Counted from the first letter of the stretch, positions 3,980-63,593 are shown. The stretch: 64,000 nt of DNA from Deltaproteobacteria bacterium CSP1-8 (GCA_001443455.1 LDXO01000001.1:3102-67101); one strand, 5' to 3'. Program-made: numbers and translations. The notes: generated from the sequence alone by a model not told the origin.

Positions 3980-4190
3980 CGGAGTGAGCGCTTTCTACGG
4001 GAAGACTGGATGGTCTGTCCCGGAAATAGGGCGAAGCACCGAGAGCGTCGATGCGCCGGGCCAGCAAGGCGCACGACTGAGGCGTACTGCTGGATGGTAC
4101 GCCGCAAGAAGTGCAACGATGCTGGGGCGGATGCAGCGGCGCTCGAATGCCGGCATATTGACGGGACGGGCCATTCAGTCTTCGATCCGG
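3961..4190. repeat. Partial, inverted copy of the interspersed repeat family (S/Y modules) in the tatD-metG intergenic region
   Basis: Minus strand of 4030-4090 matches 24245-24300. 'ggcgtactgctggatggtacgccgcaag' resembles 'ggcgtacggtcagtacgccgcacaag' at ~23950. The spurious ORFs 3475..4116(-) and 24011..25207(+) share the peptide 'YASV(V/A)RLAG(P/A)AHRRSRC'. Confidence 0.6.
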
Positions 4191-5707: not shown

Positions 5708-5744
5708 CTGTGCGTGCCTCCCGGTGCCAGGTGCTCGCGGGCGG

Positions 5745-5893
5745 CTTCCTCTCCGCTACGCTCGCGACCTTCGCCCGCTCGCTGCCGGTTCCGCTCGACC
5801 CAATTCACCGGGGACATTCCAAGGGGGGACATTCCTATATCGAGTACTGAGTTGAGGATTGTCCCCCCCCCAGCGCTCAGGAGTGTCCCCGCC
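5745..5893. repeat. Copy of the interspersed repeat family: G module (reverse orientation) plus P hairpin module
   Basis: 'gcttcctctccgctacgctcgcgacc...cgctcgacccaatt' is the reverse complement of the G module seen at 8415-8490 and 60225-60310. It is followed by duplicated 'GGGGACATTCC' half-sites and 'GGA(T/G)TGTCCCC' arms. Confidence 0.65.
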
Positions 5894-5895
5894 CA

Positions 5896-8284: not shown

Positions 8285-8328
8285 AGGAGAAATCCTACCG
8301 CGTCGGGGACCCCGGAGGAAGACCTACT

Positions 8329-8575
8329 GCAGCGTCTCGCAAATCCATGGACCATCGAGTCCGTCTCCGCGCACAGGGCGCTGCGGGGGGTTCCTCGCAG
8401 CGGCCTGTGGAGCGAGGGAGAAATTGCGTCGAGCGGAACCGGCAGCGAGCGGGCGCAAGGTCGCGAGCGTAGCGAGAGGAAGCCCCCCGCGAGCCCGTGC
8501 GCGGAATTGCCGCCTGTCCGGGGCTATCCCGGCGGCGGATCGGTGCGTCAATCCATTTACGAGACGCTGCATTAG
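8329..8575. repeat. MITE-like element bounded by ~20-bp terminal inverted repeats, carrying the G module
   Basis: Left end 'TGCAGCGTCTCGCAAATCCATGG' and right end 'CCATTTACGAGACGCTGCA' are inverted copies of each other. The interior 'aaattgcgtcgagcggaaccggcagcgagcgggcgcaaggtcgcgagcgtagcgagaggaagcc' recurs at 5745, 60225 and 63385. Confidence 0.7.
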
Positions 8576-11019
8576 CACTCCGAGAAACCGCACGAACGGC
8601 ATTTGAGGCACCCCTCCTGCATCTCGACCTGGCTGCCGCAGTCGGGGCAGGCGCCCCGCGCGATCCCGAAGTCCCCGCTGCCGAGAGCGCTCACCTGCCG
8701 GGAAGTGTTCTTCGGGTTGGCCGGGAGCGGGGATCCCTCCGGCGGCGCATTGGCGATGAATATCCTGTCGATGTTGTCGATGTACCACTCGACGGCCTTG
8801 GCCACCGCGTCCGCGCACGACATGATCTTCGCACCGTTTCCGGCCCACGCCGGGAGGTGGCACGATATCCCCTTCAGCTGCTTGACGATCATGTCGGGCT
8901 TGACCCCCGATCGGAGGGCCAGGGAGGCGAGCCTCCCGATCGCCTCGGACTGCGAGGCCGCGCATCCGCCCGCCTTCCCCATCTGGTTGAACACCTCGAA
9001 GATCCCCTTCTCGTCGCGGTTCATGGTCACGTAGATCTTTCCGCAGCTGGTCTTCATCTCCCTGGTGACCCCGAGAAGAGTGTCGGGCCGCGGGCGGGTG
9101 GAGACGTAGCCTAAGCCTCTCTCCGGGGCAGCGGGCTCCCGGGCGGAGTCCGCCCGCTTCACCTCGCCGATGTTCAGCACCTGCTCATCCCGGCTCTTGT
9201 CCCGGTAGACGGTGACTCCCTTGCACCCCAGCCGGTACGCGAGCAGATAGACCTTGCGGATGTCCTCCCGGGCCGCGTCCGAGGGAAAGTTGACCGTCTT
9301 GGACACCGCGTTGTCGACGTGCTTCTGGAAGGCGGCCTGCATCCTCAGGTGCGCCTCGGGCGAGATGTCGTGAGCCGTCACGAAGATCCTGCGCACCTCC
9401 TCCGGGATCCCCTCCACATGGCGCAGGGTCCCATTCCGGGAGATCTCCTTCATCCGCTCCTGCGAGTAGATGCCGTGCTGCTTTATCTGCGCCTCGAAAA
9501 GGGGGTGCACCTCGACGAGATGATCGTTGTCCATCACGTTGCGGATGAACGACAGGGCGAAGATGGGCTCGATGCCGCTGCTGCACCCGGTGATGATGCT
9601 GATGGTCCCTGTCGGGGCGATCGTCGTCGTGGTGGCGTTGCGCCGGGGGATCTTCCCGCTGTCCGCGAACACGCTCACGTCGTAGTTCGGGAACGGGCCC
9701 CGTTCGCGCGCCAGGTGCGACGAGGCGGCGGCCGACTCCTCCTGGACGAAGCTCATCACCTCCTGGGCAACGGCCAGGGCCTCGTCCGAGTCGTAGGGAA
9801 TGCCGAGCTTGATGAGCATATCGGCGAATCCCATCACCCCCAGCCCGACCTTCCGGTTCCCCATCGTCATCTGGCGGATCTCGGGGAGGGGGTAATGGTT
9901 CATGTCGATCACGTCGTCGAGGAACCGCATCGCGTCGTGGATCGTCTCGCGCATCTTCTCGTAATCGATCCGGATGCTCCCGTTCTCGCCCGTCACCATC
10001 CCGGAGAGGTTGATGGAGCCCAGGTTGCAGCTCTCGTAGGGTAAAAGAGGCTGCTCTCCGCACGGGTTGGTGCTCTCGATGGGGCCGAGCCCCGGGGTGG
10101 GGTTGTCCCGATTGATCCGGTCCAGGAAGATGATCCCCGGTTCCCCGTTCCGCCACGCGGCGTCCACGATCTTCTCGAACACCTCGCGGGCGGGGAGACG
10201 CGCGGCGACCGTCCGGGAGTGGGGGTTGACGAGCTCGTATTCCGCGTCCGCCTCCACCGCCTTCATGAAGTCCTCCGTGAGCGCGACGGAGATGTTGAAG
10301 TTGTTCAGGCGGTCGTTCTTCGTCTTGCAGTTGATGAACTCGAGGATGTCGGGGTGGTCGACCCGCAGGATCCCCATGTTCGCCCCCCGCCGGGTTCCCC
10401 CCTGCTTGATCGTCTCGGTCGCCGCGTCGAACACGGTCATGAAGGAAATGGGCCCCGACGAGATGCCCTTGGTGGACTTGACGACGTCGTGCTTGGGGCG
10501 CAGCCGCGAGAAGGAGAAGCCGGTACCGCCTCCGCTCTTGTGGATGAGCGCGGTGTTCTTGACCGCTTCGAAGATCGACTCCATCGAGTCGTCGACGGGC
10601 AGCACGAAGCACGCCGACAACTGCTGCAGCTCTCTCCCCGCGTTCATCAGGGTGGGGGAGTTGGGCAGGAAGTCGAGTCGGCACATCATCGCGTAGAACC
10701 TCTCCGCCCACCGGAGGACGACCTCGGGCACGGTGCCTGGGTAGCGCCCTTCCGCCGTCGCGATGTTGTAGGCCACGCGCGCGAGCATCTCCTCGGGAGT
10801 CTCCATCCTCTCCCCGGAGGGGTCCAATTTGAGGTATCGGCGCTCGAGCACCTTCCGGGCGTTCTCCGAGAGCGGCATCGGGCCGTACTTCGCCCGCATC
10901 CTTTCGGCCCACTCCTTCGGAGGGTGATCCGGAAGTTCCCTGGTTCCGGAGACCAAGGAAGTCTCCTGCTTGTCGGCCTCCGGGATGGAGGGCACGGAAA
11001 CCGAGAGGTCCAGTTTCAT
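8572..11019 (-). CDS. nrdJ: Ribonucleoside-diphosphate reductase, class II (adenosylcobalamin-dependent), monomeric NrdJ type
   Basis: 816 aa from 'MKLDLSVSV' (ATG 11019). Class II hallmarks 'CFVLPV', 'NPCGEQPL', 'GGTRRGA' and a C-terminal Zn-ribbon 'CPDCGSQ...CLKCRSCG'. Confidence 0.9.
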   Translation of the reverse strand: MKLDLSVSVPSIPEADKQETSLVSGTRELPDHPPKEWAERMRAKYGPMPLSENARKVLERRYLKLDPSGERMETPEEMLARVAYNIATAEGRYPGTVPEVVLRWAERFYAMMCRLDFLPNSPTLMNAGRELQQLSACFVLPVDDSMESIFEAVKNTALIHKSGGGTGFSFSRLRPKHDVVKSTKGISSGPISFMTVFDAATETIKQGGTRRGANMGILRVDHPDILEFINCKTKNDRLNNFNISVALTEDFMKAVEADAEYELVNPHSRTVAARLPAREVFEKIVDAAWRNGEPGIIFLDRINRDNPTPGLGPIESTNPCGEQPLLPYESCNLGSINLSGMVTGENGSIRIDYEKMRETIHDAMRFLDDVIDMNHYPLPEIRQMTMGNRKVGLGVMGFADMLIKLGIPYDSDEALAVAQEVMSFVQEESAAASSHLARERGPFPNYDVSVFADSGKIPRRNATTTTIAPTGTISIITGCSSGIEPIFALSFIRNVMDNDHLVEVHPLFEAQIKQHGIYSQERMKEISRNGTLRHVEGIPEEVRRIFVTAHDISPEAHLRMQAAFQKHVDNAVSKTVNFPSDAAREDIRKVYLLAYRLGCKGVTVYRDKSRDEQVLNIGEVKRADSAREPAAPERGLGYVSTRPRPDTLLGVTREMKTSCGKIYVTMNRDEKGIFEVFNQMGKAGGCAASQSEAIGRLASLALRSGVKPDMIVKQLKGISCHLPAWAGNGAKIMSCADAVAKAVEWYIDNIDRIFIANAPPEGSPLPANPKNTSRQVSALGSGDFGIARGACPDCGSQVEMQEGCLKCRSCGFSEC

Positions 11020-11063
11020 GGTAGCTGCTCCCTTGTAAATATTATCCCACTTTAATGATAGCG

Positions 11064-11105
11064 TATCTTGTGGTGGATGTTTATCACGCATACAAGATAT
11101 GGTGT
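11064..11105 (-). promoter_or_regulatory. Candidate NrdR-box-like operator / inverted repeat upstream of nrdJ
   Basis: 'ATACAAGATATGGTGT' (11091-11106) matches the NrdR-box consensus acaCwAtATaTwGtgt at 13/16 positions. It forms an inverted repeat 'TATCTTGT...ACAAGATA' 45-80 nt upstream of the nrdJ ATG. Only one good box was found. Confidence 0.25.
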
Positions 11106-23039: not shown

Positions 23040-23798
23040 CTACAGCGGGTCGGCGATTCCCTGCCGCCGGATCATGAGGAAGTGGAGGACCATGAACAGA
23101 AGCATCAGTGCCGGGAGGATCACCACGTGGAAGGCGAAGGTCCGGGTCAGGGCGAGCTGGCCGACCACGTCCCCTCCGCGCACGAGGTATTTCAGCGTGT
23201 CGCCCACGACCGGGATCGCCGACATGCTGTCCGTTCCGACCGTCGTGGCCCAGTAGGAGATCTGGTTCCACGGCAGCAGGTAGCCGCTGAACCCGAAGGC
23301 GAACGTGAACAGGAGCAGCATCATCCCGTTGACCCAGGTGACGTCCCGCGGAGGCCGATAGGCGGCCGTGAAGAAGACCCGCATCATGTGCAGGAGGACC
23401 GTCACGATCATCAGGTTGGCCGCCCAGAAGTGGATCCCGCGGATGAGCCACCCGTAGGGGACCCGGTTCGTGATCTCGACGACGCTGCTGTACGCCTCGG
23501 CCGTCGTGGGGCGGTAATACAATAGAAGGAGGATTCCCGTTCCCAGGAGAAAGAGATAGAGGAGGAACGCGATCCCCCCGAGGCAGGCCAGCAGGTTGCT
23601 CTCGAGCTTCGTCCGGTAGAAGCAGACCGGCTTCTCGAACTGCTTCCGTACCGCCTCGCGGAAAGGGAGCTCCTCGTCGAGCGCCCCGTAGAGGAATCCC
23701 ACCAGGGAAAAGAGGTTGACGATCTCCGTGAAGACGGTGCGCTTCTCGAACTCCTGCCGGGCCCGGTGCCGGGCGTCCCTGTCTCTTTCTTCCGTCAT
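23040..23798 (-). CDS. Cytochrome b6-like protein (cytochrome b N-terminal dihaem domain)
   Basis: Start 'MTEERDRDA' (ATG 23798). Four heme-ligand His in the classic positions ('GIHFWAAN', 'LLHMMRVF', 'FAFHVVIL', 'MVLHFLMIRRQG'). No Rieske gene lies adjacent. Confidence 0.75.
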   Translation of the reverse strand: MTEERDRDARHRARQEFEKRTVFTEIVNLFSLVGFLYGALDEELPFREAVRKQFEKPVCFYRTKLESNLLACLGGIAFLLYLFLLGTGILLLLYYRPTTAEAYSSVVEITNRVPYGWLIRGIHFWAANLMIVTVLLHMMRVFFTAAYRPPRDVTWVNGMMLLLFTFAFGFSGYLLPWNQISYWATTVGTDSMSAIPVVGDTLKYLVRGGDVVGQLALTRTFAFHVVILPALMLLFMVLHFLMIRRQGIADPL

Positions 23799-23820: not shown

Positions 23821-24312
23821 CTAGTGCACCGTCTCGCAAATCCCTTGGCATTCGATCGCCGCTGCAGGGGGCCGGTCCCCGGAAGGGTTTCGTCGCGAGA
23901 CAAGGGAGACCCGAGGCGAGGCGGGCAAGCGCAGGAGCGAGTGCGGAGGCGTACGGTCAGTACGCCGCACAAGCGAGCGACGAGCACGCCCGACGCAGCC
24001 CGGGGATCGCTTGTCGCAGCAGAAAAGGCAGCCCTGTTGGCGACCGGCGCCTGCGGCGAGGGAACGCACCGCCAGACCTTTGTCGGACTCCCTGCGCCCG
24101 GCTCGGCGTACCGCCAGTACGCCTGCGCCGTGCTCGGTCGTCCTTCGCGGTCTGACGGCGCATCCGCTTCGCCTCGGCTGCCGACCCTTCCGGGGACAGG
24201 CCCCTCGCTCCCGCTTCGTTGCGCTTCTTCACCATACTCAACGGTATGCCTCAGTCGCGCGCCTTGCTGGCGCGGCGCATCGACGCTCTCGGTGCGTCAA
24301 GCTATTTACGAG
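23821..24312. repeat. ~490-bp MITE-like element bounded by inverted terminal repeats of the T motif
   Basis: Left end 'GTGCACCGTCTCGCAAATCCC', right end 'CTATTTACGAGACGGTGCAC'. Internal inverted repeats 'gcgtacggtcagtacgcc' / 'ggcgtaccgccagtacgcc'. The interior is shared with 3961-4190 (opposite orientation). Confidence 0.65.
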
Positions 24313-26506
24313 ACGGTGCACCAGGGCGGCATTTCGACGGGCTTTCCCCTTCGGTGCCAGAAATGAAAAACTCGTGCACCGTGGGGGAACCGGTCACGTC
24401 CCATGTCCCCTTGACCCGGTTCGTCCCCTCCGAGAAGACCAGGTAACTGTATTTCCCGTAATGGGGGATCTTGCGGGCCGCCATCGCGGCGGCCTCCGGC
24501 GACAGGGGCAGGAAGAGGGCCGCGACCCGGTCCTTGTCCGACGGGTGGGGCAGGACGACGAAGAGGGAGTCTTCCCGCGAGCCGTATTCCGTCCCCCCGA
24601 TCACGAACCCCTTCGGGGACACCGAGAGTTCCCGGGGCAGGGCGGGCAGATACTTCTTCCCTCCCGGCAGGCCCAGGTAGAGCACGTCGCGTCCGGCCAG
24701 CCGGGAAGGGGGCGTATCCTCTTCCCGGAGGATCCCGATCTTCTCCTTCCCCATGGCGGCGAGGAGGACGTTCGAGGCCTCCAATATGTCGGCGGGGAGA
24801 CCGCGCGCGGCCACGACCAGGAGGTCCGCCGATCCCCGGATCCCATTGACGGAAGGGGGGATCTCGGTTGCGTCGAGTCGGCGGAACAGATCCACGTCGG
24901 GGTCGACGATCAAGCGAAGGGGGCGGGACGCAGACGCCATGGCGAAACGGGCCTCCTTCCCGGAAACTTTTATCATGGTATCTGTTTTTCCGTCTTCGGC
25001 GATGAGGCGAAGGGGAACGCTCAGGGTGTAGTACGGCTTTTCCTGCGTGACTTTTCCGGACACCCGCCACCCCTTCCCCGCCCGGTCCGCCCTGACCCCT
25101 TTGAGGGCGATGACAGGGGCGCCGGGGCGGTCGACCCACTGCCGGAAGAGGGGGGCGAAATCGGTGCCGGAGTTCTTTCCGAGCGCCCGGGCGAAGTCGT
25201 CCCATGACGCTTCCTGGAACATCTTCTCCCGGACCACGTCCTTCAGGCCCTTCCAGAACGCCTCGTCACCGGCCAGACGCCTGGCCATGTGAAAGACCAT
25301 CGCCCCTTTTCCGTACCCGACGGCACTCGACGCGGGGTTGTCCCGTCCAGCGAACGAGGCCAGGGGAAAGTCGCTCCCCAACAGGACGAGGGCACTGTAG
25401 TCCCGCAGGATCTTGAGACGGTACTCCCGCCCTTCCTCGGATGAGGACCTTTCCTTGTACAGGTAGTCGGCGACGTAGGTGGTAAGCCCCTCGGACCAGT
25501 TCCCCCGACCATGGTCGACGTGGACCCCGTTTCCCCACCAGGAGTGCGCCACCTCATGACCCAGGCTGGTGTCGAGGATGAAGGGGAGTCGCACGACGGA
25601 GGATCCGAGCAGCGTGTAGGAGGGAAAGCCGTACCCCGTGGGGAAGAAATTCTCCACCACGGCGAACTTCTCGAACGGGTAGGGCCCGAACAGCTTCCGG
25701 TAAAGGTCGAGATACCTGGCGACCGCCTGGATATATTTTTCCGAAAGCGCGTCGGTCTCCGGATAAAAGTAGGTGAAGATCCTCGTCGCCCCGGAAGATC
25801 CCTCCCGGACCCGGTAGGGGCCCGCCGAGAGGGACAGGCCTTCCAAAGGATCCCGGGTCTCCCATTCCGACCTCGTTTCGCCTCCTGACGTCTCCCGCCG
25901 GACGGGCCTTCCCGCCGCCACCGCCTCGTACCCTGCCGGCCCTTCAACACGCAGTCGGAAGGTCGGTCGGCTCCCGGGGATCTCGGGGTACCAGCCGGCC
26001 CCGCTGCTCAGGAAAGTTCCCTTATTCCGGATGGTCCCCCGGACCCCGTAGCCCGGGTCTTCGCTGTTCACGGGGTCTTCGGGGACCGGATCGTGAAACG
26101 TTCCGAAGTACGAGATGGTCAGGGACCAATCGGCGCTGCCGGCCAGGTCCTGGGGGACGTCGACGCGGACAACTCCCCCGGCGCTTGAGAAAGGGATCTT
26201 CCACCCCCCCGCGGTGACGGAATCCACGGCCGCCCCGGCAGACAAGGAGAAAACAAGGAAGGAATCCCCGGCGGGTCGTATCGTGAGCGTGTCTTTTCCG
26301 GCGAGGGAGTGGTTTTGAGGGTCAAGCCTAACCGTCAGGTCGTGATGCACGACCGCCGGCTGTCCGAATGCCCGTGCCGCCGATAACAGCAGGAGGACCG
26401 CGAGGAGGGAGGCGACGCGACGGAAGGAGGCGGCGCAACCGTTGCCCGCCCGGCACCGGATCGATCTGGCCGGGCCGGCATGTGCCGTCTTCGGGAATCC
26501 CGCCAT
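24302..26506 (-). CDS. M1-family zinc aminopeptidase (secreted)
   Basis: Zinc motif 'GHEVAHSWWGN' with a downstream Glu, and a GAMEN-like region. Start chosen at 'MAGFPKTAHAG' (ATG 26506), upstream of signal peptide 'ASLLAVLLLLSAARAFG'. Confidence 0.7.
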   Translation of the reverse strand: MAGFPKTAHAGPARSIRCRAGNGCAASFRRVASLLAVLLLLSAARAFGQPAVVHHDLTVRLDPQNHSLAGKDTLTIRPAGDSFLVFSLSAGAAVDSVTAGGWKIPFSSAGGVVRVDVPQDLAGSADWSLTISYFGTFHDPVPEDPVNSEDPGYGVRGTIRNKGTFLSSGAGWYPEIPGSRPTFRLRVEGPAGYEAVAAGRPVRRETSGGETRSEWETRDPLEGLSLSAGPYRVREGSSGATRIFTYFYPETDALSEKYIQAVARYLDLYRKLFGPYPFEKFAVVENFFPTGYGFPSYTLLGSSVVRLPFILDTSLGHEVAHSWWGNGVHVDHGRGNWSEGLTTYVADYLYKERSSSEEGREYRLKILRDYSALVLLGSDFPLASFAGRDNPASSAVGYGKGAMVFHMARRLAGDEAFWKGLKDVVREKMFQEASWDDFARALGKNSGTDFAPLFRQWVDRPGAPVIALKGVRADRAGKGWRVSGKVTQEKPYYTLSVPLRLIAEDGKTDTMIKVSGKEARFAMASASRPLRLIVDPDVDLFRRLDATEIPPSVNGIRGSADLLVVAARGLPADILEASNVLLAAMGKEKIGILREEDTPPSRLAGRDVLYLGLPGGKKYLPALPRELSVSPKGFVIGGTEYGSREDSLFVVLPHPSDKDRVAALFLPLSPEAAAMAARKIPHYGKYSYLVFSEGTNRVKGTWDVTGSPTVHEFFISGTEGESPSKCRPGAPSRK

Positions 26507-26606
26507 GATACCCGTTAGAATACAGACTCTTCCCGGACGATTCCCGTCTTTCCGCGGCCATATTTCCTGATCACGAATCGTAGGGAATTTTTCACGCACC
26601 TAACGC

Positions 26607-41323: not shown

Positions 41324-41340
41324 AGCGAGAACGATTGCCC

Positions 41341-42355
41341 GCAGAGGGGTATCCACTTTACTCCAGTACCCACAATATGTAGTGTTACTACCCATGGAGG
41401 ACTATCCGAGGACCCTTGCCGAATTCGAGAAACGGTTTGCCACGGAGGCGGCGTGCCGCGCCTACTTGATCCACTGTCGCTGGCCGTCGGGGTTTCGGTG
41501 CTCGCGGTGCGCCACCGACGATGGATGGGAAACCAGCCGGGGCTTGCGGATGTGTCCCCAGTGCGGACACCAGACCTCCGTGACAGCGGGGACGATTTTC
41601 CACCGGAGTCACCTTCCGTTGCGGACCTGGTTCCGGGCCATGTGGTGGGTCACCAACCAAAAGCACGGGGTCAGCGCTCTGGGATTGCAGCGCCTGCTCG
41701 GGTTGGGGAGCTACGAGACAGCTTGGTCCTGTCTCCAAAAACTGAGGCGTGCGATGGTGCGGCCTGACCGGGACCGGCTGGGCGGCGAGGTGGAGGTGGA
41801 TGAAACATACCTTGGCGGCGTCCAGGCTGGTGGAGGCCGTAGACACTTGGGAAACAAGGCCTTGTTGGCCATCGCCGCGCAGGTCGACGGCCAAGGGATC
41901 GGCCGGATTCGGATGCGTCGGATTCCGGATGCCTCCTCCAAGACACTCCTCTCGTTCGTCAAGATGGCGGTCGAACCGGGGGCCGTGGTCGTCACCGACG
42001 GATGGGGTCCTTACGACGGGTTGCAGAAGGAGGGCTTCACGCACAACCCCCGGGTGATCAGCGGGAGCGGAAAAACGGCATCGACTCTTCTGCCGCGGGT
42101 GCATCGGGTCGCGTCTTTGTTGAAACGGTGGCTGTTGGGAACCCATCAGGGTGCTGTATCCCGCAAGCAACTGGAATATTACCTCGACGAGTTTACGTTT
42201 CGGTTCAACCGCAGGACATCCAGGCATCGCGGTAAGCTGTTCACACGGCTTATTGAACAGGCAGTCGCAATTGGACCTACGCCTTACGAAAAACTGATCG
42301 TCGGTCCGGACCACAATATGTAGGGGTCACTGGAGTAAAGTGGATACCCCTCTGC
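41341..42355. mobile_element. IS1595-family insertion sequence with perfect 27-bp terminal inverted repeats
   Basis: Left IR 'GCAGAGGGGTATCCACTTTACTCCAGT' (41341-41367) is the exact reverse complement of the right IR (42329-42355). Subterminal direct repeats 'CCACAATATGTAG' lie at 41370-41382 and 42311-42323. Single transposase ORF inside. Confidence 0.85.
41394..42323 (+). CDS. IS1595-family (ISXO2-like) transposase
   Basis: N-terminal Zn-ribbon 'CRWPSGFRCSRC...CPQCGH', then a DDE domain. The ORF track starts at GTG 41382; ATG 41394 'MEDYPRTLAEF' is preferred. Confidence 0.8.
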   Translation: MEDYPRTLAEFEKRFATEAACRAYLIHCRWPSGFRCSRCATDDGWETSRGLRMCPQCGHQTSVTAGTIFHRSHLPLRTWFRAMWWVTNQKHGVSALGLQRLLGLGSYETAWSCLQKLRRAMVRPDRDRLGGEVEVDETYLGGVQAGGGRRHLGNKALLAIAAQVDGQGIGRIRMRRIPDASSKTLLSFVKMAVEPGAVVVTDGWGPYDGLQKEGFTHNPRVISGSGKTASTLLPRVHRVASLLKRWLLGTHQGAVSRKQLEYYLDEFTFRFNRRTSRHRGKLFTRLIEQAVAIGPTPYEKLIVGPDHNM

Positions 42356-42677
42356 CCGCAAACCGGTGTTCGGTCCGGTCGCGACGTCCCCGCATCCTCC
42401 GGGAAAGGTCGTTCCCGACGGGAAACCGGGTCGCCTCGAGCCAAATCTAAGTAGTTGGGGTGGCGCCCATCCCGGTGTCGTCTAGGCAAGGGACGTCCAA
42501 CCTCCCGGCCGGGGAGACGCCAACCAGGGATGGATACCGGATGCCGGGCGATTCCCGGCGAGGACGCGTCACCCTTTTTCGTCGTCGGGTGACCGAACCG
42601 GGGGTGTTCTCTCTTTCATCGATGGTCAAAAGCATACGGTCGCCGGCGAATTCCGGGTGCACGGAAGCGGCTTCGGG

Positions 42678-52246: not shown

Positions 52247-54376
52247 ATGAATAACATAATTGGGATTCGTTATCACAAATTTAGGATCGTGTTGTTCTGT
52301 TTTCTGGCGATCTTTGCTTTCGCAGCATTTACACCAGGCGCTAATGCATCGTCAGGTTTCTTTGCCGATCCCACTAAGGGGGACTGCAGCAGCTGCCACA
52401 CCGGACAGACGGGGAGCAGTTTCTGCGGGATGTGTCATGCGCACGGGGCGCATCCAAACAACCAGAAATCCAGCGTCAACGTGACGGCTGCAACGAACAA
52501 GTCCGACTATGCACCAGGTGAGACCGTCAGCGTGACGATCAGCGGAGGATACCGGCCCAGCCAGGCGCGTGCAATTTTATACAACCAAAGCATGACGCAG
52601 GTTGCCATCAGCACGGGCACGCCCTCCAGCGGCGGGGGACCGGTGAACGCTCCGGCCTGGACCGGCATGACTGTGAACGGGATTGCTACTTACGGGAGGA
52701 CCCTCAGCGCGCCGGCGCCGACCGCGCCGGGAACTTATACATGGAAGGCCGCCTGGTACGGGAACCTGTACGATAAGAGTGGGGCGGCGTTCGGCGGCGC
52801 GAACTGGGTTCCGGACCCCTCCAATGCCGACCACGGCGAAGAGAGAGCAAGCGTTACCTTCACGGTGACGGCCCCTGCTCCGATTCTGACCAGCATCAGC
52901 GTATCCCCCTCGTCGGCCAGCGTTGCGGCAAACGGGACACAGCAGTTCACGGCGACGGCCAAAGATCAATTTGGCAACGCCCTGGTAACGCAACCCGTCT
53001 TCACCTGGACGGTGAGTGGCGGCGGAACGATCAACGGCAGCGGACTTTTCACTGCCGGGAGCACGGCGGGTGGCCCGTACACGGTGAGGGCAGCGAGCGG
53101 CGTGGTGAGCGGAACGGCCAGCGTGACGGTGACGGCCCCTGCTCCGATTCTGACCAGCATCAGCGTATCCCCCTCGTCGGCCAGCGTTGCGGCAAACGGG
53201 ACACAGCAGTTCACGGCGACGGCCAAAGATCAATTTGGCAACGCCCTGGTAACGCAACCCGTCTTCACCTGGACGGTGAGTGGCGGCGGAACGATCAACG
53301 GCAGCGGACTTTTCACTGCCGGGAGCACGGCGGGTGGCCCGTACACGGTGAGGGCAGCGAGCGGCGTGGTGAGCGGAACGGCCAGCGTGACGGTGACGGA
53401 CGTGCCGGGAGACACGACGGACACGGTGCCTCCGACCGTGATCTCCACCAACCCGCCCGATCTCGCGGTGGATGTCTACGTGAATACCGCGATCGAGGCG
53501 ACCTTCAGCGAACAGATCGACCCGTCTTCCCTGGAATCGGGCAACATCCGGGTCAGGGATCCGGCGAATATCGAAGTGCCGGGCGCGGTGAGTTACAGCG
53601 AAACCAGTAAGACAGCGACGTTTTCCCCGTCCACCCCCCTTGCGTACGGTACCGTATACACCGCCGAGGTCAAGCTCGGGGTGACAGACTTGGCCGGAAA
53701 CAGGATGGCGTCCCTTTACAAGTGGACGTTTACGACCCAGCAGGCGTCGCCCGATTCTGACGGCGACGGCGTGGGGGACGACGACGACGAGTCTCCGCAC
53801 GACTGCCGCAACGCGACGCCAAGGACCCCGAGGGGGAACGGCAAGATCCAGGTCGAGCTGGTAGGAAGCGCCCCCGGGTGCCTGAAAAACGTTAAAACCT
53901 CAACGGAGACGAGTTCCTCCATAACCATGGCGGTGAAACCCGCGGGGTACGAGTTCCCCGACGGGCTGGTGTATTACGAGGTGGAGGGGATTCCTCCCGG
54001 GAGCACGGAAACCGTGCTTCTCACCTATCCGCAGCCCCATTCCGCCGGGTCGAAGGTGTTCAAGGTCGACGCCAGCGGGTTCCAGGAGTTTTCCGGGGGG
54101 TCCATCAGCGGGAAAACCGTCACCCTGATTGTCACGGACGGCGGAGCGGGTGACCTGGACGGGCTGCGCGACGGCGTGATCACCGACCCGGTCGGCGTCG
54201 GGTCTCCCGTTGATCCGGGCGGGAGCATCGATCTGGGAACGAGCGCCTCGGGCGGCGGCTGCTCCGTGGTCGGCGCCGGCGGAGGGTGGAAGGAGGCCGC
54301 AGGGTTTTACGGTCTCATTGCCCTTGCGTGGCTCGGGCTGGCCCTCCGGAGGAGGAGACCGAAGACCGGGAAGTGA
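52247..54376 (+). CDS. Large secreted protein: N-terminal diheme cytochrome c region, two identical Big_2-like Ig domains, an SbsA-Ig-like domain, an Asp-rich Ca-binding-like repeat, and a MYXO-CTERM-like sorting tail
   Basis: Signal peptide 'IVLFCFLAIFAFAAF'. Heme motifs 'CSSCH' and 'CGMCH'. 88-aa Ig-like unit repeated twice. 'DSDGDGVGDDDDE' stretch. C-terminus 'GGGCSVVGAGGGW...GLIALAWLGLALRRRRPKTGK' has a GC motif, a TM helix and an Arg cluster. Lower GC than its surroundings. Confidence 0.65.
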   Translation: MNNIIGIRYHKFRIVLFCFLAIFAFAAFTPGANASSGFFADPTKGDCSSCHTGQTGSSFCGMCHAHGAHPNNQKSSVNVTAATNKSDYAPGETVSVTISGGYRPSQARAILYNQSMTQVAISTGTPSSGGGPVNAPAWTGMTVNGIATYGRTLSAPAPTAPGTYTWKAAWYGNLYDKSGAAFGGANWVPDPSNADHGEERASVTFTVTAPAPILTSISVSPSSASVAANGTQQFTATAKDQFGNALVTQPVFTWTVSGGGTINGSGLFTAGSTAGGPYTVRAASGVVSGTASVTVTAPAPILTSISVSPSSASVAANGTQQFTATAKDQFGNALVTQPVFTWTVSGGGTINGSGLFTAGSTAGGPYTVRAASGVVSGTASVTVTDVPGDTTDTVPPTVISTNPPDLAVDVYVNTAIEATFSEQIDPSSLESGNIRVRDPANIEVPGAVSYSETSKTATFSPSTPLAYGTVYTAEVKLGVTDLAGNRMASLYKWTFTTQQASPDSDGDGVGDDDDESPHDCRNATPRTPRGNGKIQVELVGSAPGCLKNVKTSTETSSSITMAVKPAGYEFPDGLVYYEVEGIPPGSTETVLLTYPQPHSAGSKVFKVDASGFQEFSGGSISGKTVTLIVTDGGAGDLDGLRDGVITDPVGVGSPVDPGGSIDLGTSASGGGCSVVGAGGGWKEAAGFYGLIALAWLGLALRRRRPKTGK
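52871..53398 (+). repeat. Perfect intragenic tandem duplication, 2 x 264 bp (Ig-like domain unit)
   Basis: 52871-53134 and 53135-53398 look identical at nucleotide level. Both encode 'APAPILTSISVSPSSASVAANGTQQF...GTASVTVT'. The antisense ORFs 52735..52962(-) and 52966..53226(-) share the identical prefix 'MAVAVNCCVPFAATLADEGDTLMLVRIGAGAVTV'. Confidence 0.85.
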
Positions 54377-59828: not shown

Positions 59829-60162
59829 CGCGCTCCTCCCGGCTTGCGCAGGGCCTCTCATAGATATTTTCTCACGGTTTGCCACGGGATGTCTTATGCA
59901 CCGGTTGCGGGGTAAAGGGACGTTCGTTTTTGCCGCTTCCGGAAACGGACCGCGGAGGGGTATCATCGTACAGGGCGATGGGGGAGAAGCCACGGGGCGC
60001 GATGCGTTCGCCCCGCGTCCGGGGCCGTCGGCAAGGGAGGGAAACCCCGGGGAAGGGCGATGATAAGATGAAGTCTGAAAACACGCGCGGTCAGGCTAAG
60101 TACTCCGCTTCACAAATATGGCAACGTATCCTTGCATGCCCCCCGTTGCCAAGGGGCGCAGC

Positions 60163-60345
60163 GGGGGATTCCTCGAAGCGGGGGGACATTCCTATATCGA
60201 GTTGTACGTTGAGGAGTGTCCCGCGAAAGGCGAAAATTGCGTCGAGCGGAATGGCAGCGAGCAGTCGCAGGTCGCGAGCGTAGCGGAGAGGAAGCCGCCC
60301 GCGAGCACCTGGCACCGGGAGGGGAAACGCCTCGGGCGTCGGCCC
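60163..60345. repeat. Composite P-G-T copy of the interspersed repeat family
   Basis: P hairpin 'GGGGACATTCCtatatcgagttgtacgttgaGGAGTGTCCC', then the G module 'aattgcgtcgagcgg...gcgagcgtagcggagaggaagcc', then T motif 'gatacgagaccgtaattacgagacgcagcac'. The spurious ORFs here share 'STRYRNVPP' with ORFs at the 5.8-kb copy. Confidence 0.7.
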
Positions 60346-60423
60346 GATACGAGACCGTAATTACGAGACGCAGCACTTAGCGGAACGCATCGTGTTTTCC
60401 ACACACCACGAAAGGGGAACGAG

Positions 60424-61205: not shown

Positions 61206-63224
61206 GTGGAGTACGGATCTCTTGCCTGGCGTTCGATCAACGCCATCCGGTTTCTCTCCGTAGACGCGGTGCAGAAGGCGAAATCCGGTCATCCCGGCAC
61301 TCCCATGGCGCTTGCCCCGCTGTCGTACCTTCTCTGGACGAGAACCCTCCGGTACAACCCGAAGAATCCGGACTGGCCCGGCAGGGACCGGTTCATCCTC
61401 TCCTGCGGGCACGCGTCGATGCTCCTGTACTCCCTGCTGTACCTCACCGGGTTCGACCTTCCCCTCGAGGAGCTCAAGGCGTTCCGCCAGTGGGGGAGCA
61501 AAACGCCGGGGCACCCGGAGGCGGGGCACACGCCAGGGGTCGAGGTAACCACCGGGCCTCTCGGGCAGGGGATCGGAAACGCCGTGGGGATGGCGATGGC
61601 GTCGCGGTTGCTGGCCCACCGGTTCAACCGCCCCGGGCACGAGATCGTGTCCCACCGGATCGTGGCGCTGTGCTCCGACGGGGACCTCATGGAGGGGGTT
61701 GCCTCCGAGGCCGCGTCGCTGGCCGGGTTCCACCGGCTCGGCAACCTCGTCGCCTTCTACGACGACAACCGGATCACGATCGAGGGGTCGACCGACCTGG
61801 CGTTTCGCGAGGACGTCGCCGGCCGGTTTCGCTCCTACGGCTGGAACGTCCTGACGGTCGCCGACGGGAACACCGATCTCGAGGGGACCTCGGCGGCGAT
61901 CGGGGCGGCCTTTGCGGAGAGGGAGCGACCGACGCTCGTGATCGTACGGACGAACATCGCCTTCGGCAGCCCGAACAAGCAGGACACCGCGGAAGCGCAC
62001 GGATCCCCCCTCGGGGAGAAGGAGGTGGCGCTCACGAAGGAGGCGCTCGGCTGGCCGAAGGAGCCGGATTTTTTCGTGCCCGTCGATGTCCTGGCGCACT
62101 TCCGGGAGGCGATTCCCCGAGGGGAGGCGATGGAGCGTGAGTGGCGCCTCAAGATGGCGGCATACATGAGCGCCCATCCGGACCTGGCCATGGAATGGGA
62201 ACGGGTCATGTGGGGGGATCTTCCGGAGGGTTGGGAGAAGGACCTCCCTTCCTTCTCCCCCGGGGCCGGCCCGATGGCGACGCGGAAGGCGTCGGGGAAA
62301 GTGATCAATGCGATCGCCCGGAGGGTCCCCGAGCTTGCGGGGGGGTCGGCCGATCTCGCCCCGTCCACGGAGACGCTGATCGAGGGAGGCGGGGAGTTCC
62401 TCCCGGACGCCTCTCCGGGGGGGAGGAACTTCCACTTCGGCGTGCGCGAGCACGGGATGGGGGCGATCCTCAACGGGATGTCGCGCCACGGGGGGGTGAT
62501 CCCGTACGGGGCCACGTTCCTGATCTTCTCAGACTATATGCGGGCCTCCATTCGCCTGGCGGCGCTTTCGGGTGTCCGGGTGATCTACGTCTTCACCCAC
62601 GATTCCGTGGGGCTCGGCGAGGACGGCCCCACCCACCAGCCGATCGAGCATCTGCCGTCGCTGAGGGCGATCCCGAACCTGTACGTCTTCCGGCCGGCGG
62701 ACGCCAACGAGACGGCAGCGGCGTGGAAGATGGCGATGGAGCGGTCCACGGGACCCTCCGCGATCGCGCTCACCCGGCAGAGCGTCCCGATCCTTCCCCC
62801 GGAGGAGGTGTTCCGCGATGGAAACGTATACCGGGGCGCGTACATCCTCAAAGAAGGGGGGAAGGGCCATCCCGCGGTGATTCTGCTGGCCTCCGGCTCG
62901 GAGGTGCACGTTGCCCTGGGGGCCGCCGAACTCCTGGAGACGGAAGGGATATCCTCGCGGGTGGTGAGCTTCCTTTGCTGGGAACGGTTCGAGGAGCAGC
63001 CCGACCTGTACCGCCAGTCCCTGCTTCCGTCGTCGGTTCGCGCGAGGGTTTCGGTGGAGGCGGCGGCGACCTTCGGGTGGGACCGGTACCTGGGCGGCGG
63101 CGGTGCCTCCGTGGGAATCGACCGATTCGGCGCCTCGGCGCCTGCGGCGCGCATCTTTCAGGAGCTGGGAATCACACCCGAAAACGTCGCGGCCCTGGCG
63201 AAGGCCTTGCTCGGGAAAGCGTAG
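61206..63224 (+). CDS. tkt: Transketolase
   Basis: 672 aa. TPP-binding '[18 protein letters not shown]', transketolase pyrimidine-domain and C-terminal-domain layout. Confidence 0.9.
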
Positions 63225-63264
63225 AGGTGCTGTGCTTTCCGAAATACGGCACTGTGACCCGGGG

Positions 63265-63545
63265 CGCGGCGGGGGATTCCTCGAAGCATGGGCGGGGGCA
63301 CTCCTCTCCCGCATCCCGGTGGGCGGGGACACTCCTCAACGTGTAACTTGAGATAGGAATGTCCCCGGAGGGTCCCCGGGAAATCGCATCGAGCGGGCGC
63401 AGTTTCGCGGGTGCCGAAAAAGCGTAGCAAGCCGAAGGAGTGGGGGCGCAGTGAGGTTAAGCCACGAACGGAGCCCCCCTCCGAGGCTGCGGAGCGATCG
63501 CCGCCCGCGGGCCCCGGGCACGATACGAGGCCGTAACTACGATAC
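63265..63545. repeat. Composite P-G-T copy of the interspersed repeat family (P module inverted relative to the 60.2-kb copy)
   Basis: 'gggggattcctcgaagc' is shared with 60163. 'GGACACTCCtcaacgtgtaacttgagataGGAATGTCCCC' is the reverse complement of the 60181 hairpin. A diverged G module follows, then T motif 'gatacgaggccgtaactacgatacgctgcac'. Confidence 0.65.
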
Positions 63546-63593
63546 GCTGCACTAAGGAACCGGTATCGAATTTTTCCCGGGAAAGGAGCGTGC

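Follow-up and report, generated by a model that had tools for sequence, protein, structure and literature searches.

A probable family of hairpin-forming, non-autonomous inverted-repeat elements with CTAG-like flanks in the Candidatus Deferrimicrobium (MBNT15) lineage

Results

Genes and repeats in the window

The DNA analysed here (the window) is a stretch of 64,000 nucleotides from Deltaproteobacteria bacterium CSP1-8 that carries, at two places, inverted pairs of the 17-nt end motif TGCA[G/C]CGTCTCG[C/T]AAAT. One pair bounds element A, which sits between the stop of the class II ribonucleotide reductase gene (nrdJ) and the thymidylate kinase gene (tmk); the other bounds element B, upstream of a cytochrome b (cyt b) gene (Table 1). 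A search of the window with TGCASCGTCTCGYAAAT gave four exact matches, which form two inward-facing pairs and coincide with the terminal inverted repeats (TIRs) of A and B, so both elements lie where an earlier note on this DNA had placed them, with the ends quoted there. Two degenerate matches were found at 60359-60375 (-) and 63535-63551 (-). The six matches compare with 0.26 expected, and six or more were obtained in none of 100 shuffles. For the second element the location given in the note was right, but its end is at 24320-24321 rather than 24312, and its length is 496-498 nt.

Self-comparison of the window and a family profile identified three members of one repeat family, called T here: A, B and F. 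The two elements listed in the note are thus real, but copy F and also C and D, which belong to a sister family T2, had been missed. Although A and B do possess T ends, neither is a simple member of the family, as the standard T copy is a non-coding imperfect hairpin of ca. 160 nt and both elements hold other, inserted repeats. Their interiors differ, as was claimed: B is split by a 339-nt insert (Z), whereas profile comparison showed that A is homologous to T over only ca. 35 nt at each end and that its interior consists of a module X. The interiors are different because several repeat families are nested, X in A and Z in B. Five such families (T, T2, X, Y and Z) are nested or stacked in this region.

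Table 1. Positions of repeat elements, modules and adjoining genes in the 64-kb window
Feature	Position	Strand	Remarks
Element F, near-complete T copy	4009..4175	-	profile E = 1e-33; decayed ends ATGGTCTGTCCCGGAAAT / ATTGACGGGACGGGCCAT
Block E	5708..5895	-	modules Y and X without T ends
Element A, T derivative	8327..8572	+	T ends around a foreign interior
TIRs of A	8328-8344 and 8555-8571	+ / -	
Module X in A	8376..8507	+	GC-rich repeat of ca. 125 nt; own inverted ends GCGCTGCGGGGGGTTCC / GGAAGCCCCCCGCGAGC
Module X elsewhere	5717-5805, 60153-60322, about 63261-63520		
nrdJ, class II ribonucleotide reductase	8572-11091	-	Ribonuc_red_lgC, 6e-143
cyt b gene	23040-23798	-	
Element B, complete T copy with insert	23824..24321	+	profile positions 1-46 (at 23821-23866) and 49-167 (at 24206-24323)
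TIRs of B	23825-23841 and 24304-24320	+ / -	
Flanks of B	23821-23824 and 24321-24324		CTAG and CCAG
Z, 339-nt insert in B	23867..24205	+	own inverted ends of ca. 20 nt, GGGGCC[G/T]GTCCCCGGAAGGG
M1-peptidase-like ORF	24302-26599	-	stop codon 24302..24304
IS1595-family insertion sequence	41335-42361		complete, sole IS in the window; terminal inverted repeats of 50 nt
ORF of the IS1595-family element	41382-42323		313 aa; DDE_Tnp_IS1595 (3.6e-30) and IS1595 zinc ribbon
Element C, sister family T2	60088..60378	+	ends CTAAGTAC... / ...GCACTTAG
Element D, degenerate T2 copy	63225..63557	+	X- and Y-like modules inside
Module Y	5815-5872, 60180-60222, 63321-63366		inverted repeat of ca. 45 nt, GGGGACA[T/A/C]TCC ends

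Element A is flanked by TA (8325-8326 and 8573-8574) inside C...G, and the TAA stop codon of nrdJ (8572-8574, minus strand) is composed of the flanking TA and the terminal base of A. ORFs that overlap A are artefacts of its GC-rich hairpin, and both strands of A give a good fold (z about -5). Comparison of 80 loci around tmk showed that A is also present in a contig with a 100% identical tmk gene and in one with 89% tmk identity. Relatives at 85-86% tmk identity carry X alone at the nrdJ-tmk site, and in more distant relatives the site is empty and reads GAGTGCTAG, where the final Cys codon together with the TAG stop gives CTAG. An element of the A type (T ends plus X) also occurs at a different site in another species (locus L103), and therefore the composite itself has been copied.

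The M1-peptidase-like ORF beside element B has its stop codon inside the right TIR, and the last residues of its product (...GAPSRK*) are element-encoded. B is present in all ten contigs that carry an identical cyt b gene, and seven of these ten contigs break inside B. The loci compared with the window at B are L197, L198 and L229-L234. The gene on the far side depends on the assembly: the M1 peptidase gene in the window, the TAG stop of a Rieske protein gene in L197 and an AP endonuclease gene in L198. Relatives with 82-86% identical cyt b genes show the order MTHFR-GcvH-Rieske-cyt b, with the Rieske and cyt b genes overlapping or 25 nt apart, and no Rieske gene is found in the 64-kb window. 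Because the Rieske gene directly precedes cyt b in the relatives, B must have been inserted into a conserved operon junction (Rieske/cyt b). Given the differing far flanks of B, the Rieske-cyt b order of the relatives and the missing Rieske gene, the window contains either a rearrangement between repeat copies or a mis-join through B. The neighbour named by the note for A, nrdJ, is right; the gene on the far side of B is uncertain, as the assemblies differ there. Insert Z was found at a single site in the sampled DNA, inside B.

Copy F separates the metG stop codon (4175-4177) from the next gene, and D starts directly 3' of the TAG stop of a transketolase gene (63222-63224). The ends of T2 are related to those of T but distinct (CTAAGT[A/G]C... 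/ ...GCACTTAG). Element C carries module X, which in turn is split by module Y. X has the sequence frame GGCGCAGCGGGGGGTTCC ... GGAAGCCCCCCGCGAGC, matches no Rfam family, and is conserved across species, where it occurs in T or T2 shells and also alone in the same spacers of other species (X loci outside the window are L103, L120, L121, L130, L143 and L144). Module Y is often nested in X, and contig L228 is without one 31-nt Y-like direct repeat of D. Block E fills the spacer between a ricT-like gene and metG, which measures 191 nt in the window and 5-17 nt in all relatives (L117, L118, L120-L149). The module content of this spacer varies among contigs with 99.5-100% identical tmk genes, which is either strain-level turnover or assembly ambiguity.

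Element C is present in three and absent from six contigs with an identical neighbouring gene (loci L217-L226), the flanks being otherwise identical, which is proof that the element was gained or lost recently. Contigs without C have the sequence GGTCAGG-TTGCG-CGGAACG, those with it GGTCAGG-[CTAAG...CTTAG]-CGGAACG; the empty site has no TA, five target bases seem to be replaced rather than duplicated, and the insertion of C is not a simple TA duplication.

Repeats of other kinds are also present in the window. An ORF of 710 codons (52247-54376) contains two tandem copies (52834-53361) of a 264-nt unit that are 95% identical. Large multihaem cytochrome genes are clustered between 11505 and 22500; they contain numerous diverged repeat units with CXXCH, and these units make up the bulk of the 'direct repeat families' that had been reported for this DNA.

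Occurrence in related genomes

The note had proposed to look for further copies outside the window. In a collection with a single genome for each species, the exact 17-mer was matched in at least 116 stretches; about half of these are single chance matches in unrelated taxa, as expected with 17 nt and about 600 Gb of sequence. At least 48 loci match the full-length T profile (E < 1e-8), and these come from at least 24 species-level assemblies, so the ends do recur, and the outcome that the note had named as a refutation, a lack of further copies genome-wide, is clearly contradicted. The labels of the 24 assemblies are Candidatus Deferrimicrobium, Deferrimicrobiaceae and 'Deltaproteobacteria bacterium', with one Gemmatimonadota; the uncultured Deferrimicrobium/Deferrimicrobiaceae lineage corresponds to candidate phylum MBNT15 (PMC9386147).

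Pairing of ends yielded 45 complete elements among the matches listed, including the two in the window. These have a standard form: 36 of the 45 are 158-162 nt long, with a mean column identity of 90%. Across the 36 aligned copies the terminal 17-21 nt are (near-)invariant and read GTGCA[C/G]CGTCTCGCAAAT on the left and ATTT[G/A]CGAGACG[G/C]T[A/G]CAC on the right. T occupies 44 different sites with distinct flanks, again among the matches listed.

T-type ends of 17-20 nt with a CTAG-like flank are also present in metagenome-assembled genomes of Verrucomicrobiae (L006, L031, L076/L102) and Chloroflexota (L029, L108). They adjoin different sequence, and at the inspected loci neither a partner end nor a transposase is visible. 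At L031 an ORF tail ...APSRK* is element-encoded, as in the M1 peptidase of the window. The shared end and flank in these two groups hint at a widespread parent IS.

Element boundaries and target sites

Beyond 4 nt, the flanks of the 44 copies are unrelated to one another, and no direct repeat was found outside the flanking four bases. The left flank has C in 38, T in 40, A in 41 and G in 43 of the 44 copies; the corresponding numbers for the right flank are C 42, T 37, A 32 and G 39. Common decayed flanks are CCAG and CTGG. Such sequences would be expected as products if very-short-patch-type repair acted on CTAG.

Reconstructed empty sites were searched against all fetched DNA, which gave two orthologous filled/empty pairs. 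Locus L040 is occupied (CATCGCG-CTAG[280 nt]CTAG-AAAGAAAG) and L105 is empty (CATCGCG-TTAA-AAGGAAAG), whereas in the other pair L055 is occupied (GGGGGGG-CTAG[160 nt]CTGG-CCCGAAGG) and L036 empty (GGGGGGA-CCGA-CCCGAAGG). The TTAA/CTAG difference in the first pair consists of a synonymous TTT/TTC exchange plus a TAA/TAG exchange of the stop codon, both in an ORF of 427 codons that terminates on the flank. In both pairs the inserted length equals the element plus exactly 4 nt, which bears on the note's suggestion to look for a target-site duplication. The unrelated flanks and the filled/empty orthologous sites contradict the idea that all copies stand at orthologous positions, as a non-mobile structure passed on vertically would. 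For T itself no filled/empty pair within a population is on record via the metG, tatD-like or M1-peptidase products, and all cyt b contigs carry B.

The filled and empty lengths fit equally well with duplication of TA (by an element with the ends G...C), with duplication of CTAG, and with a CTAG target joined by an element-borne CTAG. The sequence detail favours TA within CTAG, and not CTAG, as the unit that would be duplicated, because deviations from CTAG are more frequent at the outer flank positions (11) than at the inner ones (3), because deviating flanks are mirrored as direct repeats in 0 of about 11 cases, and because the flanks of T2 read C-TA-AGT...ACT-TA-G. Elements of the IS630 family insert at TA and duplicate it (PMC2170065), with a preference for TA within CTAG to judge from the title of Tenzen & Ohtsubo 1991 in the reference list of that paper. 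Insertion into palindromic targets was rejected, as the complementarity of the outer flanks was 3.5 of 14 compared with 4.0 of 14 in shuffled pairings.

The tetranucleotide CTAG is rare here. There are five occurrences in the window, compared with the 207 that its base composition would give and with a Markov estimate of 30 (observed/expected 0.02 and 0.17, respectively). GATC and TCGA are over-represented in the window (2.7x and 2.3x). The loss of CTAG is not a T-specific effect, since related loci sampled without T are equally depleted. About a third of the copies abut or cap a stop codon: at 8 of the 45 a long ORF with high GC3 ends exactly on the flanking TAG or TAA, and at 6 others an ORF ends within the first 25 nt of a TIR. 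The stops at elements in the window are those of nrdJ (abutting A), metG (abutting F) and the transketolase gene (abutting D).

Hairpin conservation and functional signals

The 36 standard copies share one hairpin of 54 pairs, with 98.2% of the cells of the alignment paired. At eight pairs (74 cells) compensatory changes have altered both sides; columns 9/165, for instance, show CG19/GC16 and columns 25/149 show UA18/CG17. This level of covariation was reached in none of 500 shuffles and in no slid register. The T consensus also folds well as DNA (z -6.3).

Wobble-type mismatches amount to 89 cells, from three positions, when one strand is considered and to 45 for the other, with similar singleton numbers, and relative to co-directional neighbours T is oriented 14 against 7. 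As such mismatches occur on both strands and the orientation is 14 against 7, there is no sign of a strand-specific RNA, and selection for one was rejected as unsupported. The constraint could apply to the hairpin as DNA or to RNAs of both orientations, or it could reflect mismatch correction within the hairpin.

No match was found when the whole 64-kb window was searched against Rfam 15 at gathering thresholds, and permissive Rfam searches of A and B gave only chance-level matches (E about 3). Simple scans detected neither a sigma-70-type promoter nor a hairpin-plus-T-run terminator in A, B or the standard copy. The proposal in the note that the elements could supply promoters or terminators is not supported by these scans.

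Search for a transposase

Neither the window nor about 1.7 Mb of related DNA, a plasmid collection or viral contigs yielded a transposase associated with T ends; the plasmid collection gave chance matches only and the viral contigs none or chance matches. The IS1595-family element of the window was rejected as the parent of T, as its ends are unrelated. Among IS-sized inverted-repeat pairs in all GC-rich loci, only MITE pairs and this IS1595-family element were detected, and no T-like IS. Loci with a single end, including those of Verrucomicrobiae and Chloroflexota, contain ordinary genes and no partner end. Searches of the lineage loci by tblastn with IS630, RAYT and IS608 transposases gave no matches, which is a weak test; the fetched loci also showed no ORF of the Y1-transposase type (again a weak test).

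Discussion

Nature and mobility of the T family

The best explanation of the two elements, to which we assign a probability of about 0.7, is that A and B are copies of T and that T is a non-autonomous MITE family of the Candidatus Deferrimicrobium (MBNT15) lineage. That T is a mobile, non-autonomous repeat family is very probable. T has the size of a MITE, being shorter than ca. 500 nt and without coding capacity (158-162 nt for the standard copy), its TIRs are common to all copies, there are many copies at unrelated sites (44 with unique flanks among the matches listed), and at orthologous sites it is present or absent, with a gain of the element plus 4 nt as a short target duplication (TA or CTAG) would give. 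An autonomous partner IS with T ends was absent from the DNA searched. Several accepted MITE families, for example Correia, are likewise without a known partner. Of the note's view that non-autonomous elements are mobilized here by a shared transposase, the multi-copy, non-coding TIR family with filled and empty sites is borne out, but a matching transposase was not found. Identity with integron attC sites was rejected: the ends read GTGCA.../...TGCAC without GTTRRRY, and the neighbours are housekeeping genes in conserved order. The attC sites are imperfect palindromes bounded by RYYYAAC/GTTRRRY, located 3' of promoterless cassettes near an integrase. Since a search of the literature gave no description of these repeats or of the T end sequence, T is an ordinary MITE family that is new to the literature but of a well-known element kind.

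The opposite reading, which sees in A and B local palindromes or operator-like sites formed where they now stand, without any family, is suggested only by the inverted-repeat appearance. It can be practically dismissed, being refuted by at least 48 loci in at least 24 assemblies, the unrelated flanks and the filled/empty orthologous sites.

Proposed mechanism and alternatives

The enzyme that moves T would most likely be a DDE transposase of the IS630/Tc1-mariner type acting in trans; for this type, together with TA duplication, we consider the odds about even. Such an enzyme would insert T at the TA of CTAG and duplicate the TA. CTAG survives mainly where a TAG stop follows C, which would be why copies often stand exactly at gene ends, and TA together with the first base of the element, G, would rebuild the stop codon. 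Older copies would gather other repeats inside, such as X in A and Z in B, while their flanks would decay to CCAG or CTGG. Arguing against an IS630-type enzyme are the polymorphism of C at TTGCG, a site without TA, and the lack of a transposase in the DNA searched. The compensatory pairing along the whole hairpin also argues against a DDE enzyme in general, as a cut-and-paste DDE mechanism does not require it.

The flanks themselves bear on an IS5-type transposase that would produce a 4-bp YTAR/CTAG target duplication, with TGCA...T[A/G]CA as the element proper. IS5 duplicates a CTAG-like target of 4 bp. Both the CTAG on either side of most copies and the insertion size of element plus 4 nt would follow from such an enzyme. 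However, deviating flanks are never repeated on the opposite side (TTAG/CTAG, TTAG/CTAC, CTAG/CTAA), although mutation after insertion could contribute to this, the inner bases (left G in 43 of 44, right C in 42 of 44) are conserved like the element and the outer ones less so (38 and 39 of 44), and T2 has CTAAG...CTTAG, which is an inverted and not a direct 4-mer. We consider this enzyme type unlikely, and a HUH tyrosine transposase equally so. The latter would move a single-stranded hairpin in the manner of REPIN/RAYT or IS200/IS605, with CTAG as cleavage or target site and no true duplication. It would account for the whole-element hairpin and its compensatory changes (eight pairs, 74 cells, 0 of 500 shuffles), for mismatches that are symmetric on the two strands, for the T2 polymorphism without duplication and, by way of a CTAG target plus an element ending in CTAG, for the filled/empty lengths. 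On the other hand, the ends of T are not small palindromes like those of REP or IS608, so that pairing needs both ends of the 160-nt element, both flanks decay alike, and the fetched loci contain no ORF resembling a Y1 transposase, a weak test. REP or REPIN identity was also rejected, as the ends hold only the 6-nt palindrome GTGCAC and pair end-to-end.

A further reading, compatible with mobility, attributes the hairpin chiefly to host selection for an RNA or DNA structure at gene 3' ends, where it could be an mRNA stabilizer, a processing site or a protein-binding site. The covariation is conserved across 24 species among the matches listed, the elements often directly follow stops or lie between co-directional genes (nrdJ-tmk, metG-tatD, Rieske-cyt b), and effects of this kind on transcripts are known for ERIC and Correia elements (PMC10969869). 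Yet there is no Rfam match and no T run, no orientation bias beyond 14 to 7 and no strand bias in wobble-type mismatches, and the orthologous sites in relatives function without the element. We regard this reading as very unlikely. A mixed scheme, which is speculative and rather unlikely, would make T an element that seeks out stop codons and is tolerated or exploited by its host: it would land on the few remaining CTAG sites, mostly TAG stops with a C before them, rebuild the stop and leave a hairpin of ca. 75 bp after the ORF. This hairpin, whose pairing has been maintained by compensatory change in at least 24 species, might act as a 3'-end stabilizer or processing signal where gene ends lack T-run terminators. 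In connection with this scheme, the near-total loss of CTAG in the lineage might be tied to pressure from such CTAG-targeting elements, and the 5-nt replacement at the polymorphic T2 site might reflect a mode of insertion different from TA duplication. For the movement of T itself we retain the IS630/Tc1-mariner-type enzyme as the preferred proposal.

Significance

In metagenome assemblies, T repeats cause contigs of this environmentally widespread, iron-cycling lineage to break and to be joined wrongly. They can extend or cap ORFs, as with the tail ...GAPSRK*, and the consensus allows them to be masked. T is a clean example of target choice that would be shaped by oligonucleotide scarcity, CTAG being left almost only at stops, and an example of a MITE hairpin maintained by compensatory change. 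By splitting the conserved operon junctions Rieske/cyt b and nrdJ/tmk, T may influence neighbouring genes, which raises the questions of polarity and of how the mRNA is processed. These elements leave current concepts of mobile DNA in bacteria as they are.

Comparison with known repeat systems

The Correia elements of Neisseria (CREE/NEMIS), which carry promoters and an IHF site, belong to another phylum, and T has no sequence similarity to them, no promoter-like hexamers and a distinct association with CTAG and stop codons. Similar to T, they are non-coding, ca. 100-160 nt long and TA-flanked, have TIRs of ca. 20-26 nt and occur in many copies; both are mostly intergenic, form a long hairpin when transcribed, and are without a known cognate transposase (in part after PMC10969869). 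T also resembles ERIC/IRU and the 168-nt YPAL/RU-2 of enterobacteria, which are imperfect palindromes of 127-168 nt, located in transcribed intergenic regions and often at gene 3' ends, and vary in size by internal insertions or deletions (PMC10969869; PMC2759123). Unlike in ERIC and YPAL, other repeat families are nested inside T, its ends are more sharply conserved, and its sequence is unrelated.

Among MITEs of the IS630 type, such as RUP of pneumococcus and Nezha of cyanobacteria, parent IS elements with matching ends are known. IS630 has a TA target with TA duplication (PMC2170065), as do the MITEs derived from IS630/Tc1-mariner, and this is also the favoured reading for T. Unlike for RUP and Nezha, no parent IS was found for T in the DNA searched. 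REP units are short palindromes with a 5' GTAG, are moved by RAYT and have no flanking duplication. Like T, the REPINs are mobile, hairpin-forming intergenic doublets whose arms evolve to stay paired, but the ends of T are not palindromes in themselves, and the lineage loci showed no RAYT. Finally, BIMEs and the pneumococcal BOX elements resemble the present case in that one and the same intergenic spacer contains several repeat families, stacked or nested, and repeat clusters with elements inserting into one another have been noted in a review (PMC10969869). The component families are different from those of BIMEs and BOX, and the outer shell described here is a TIR element.
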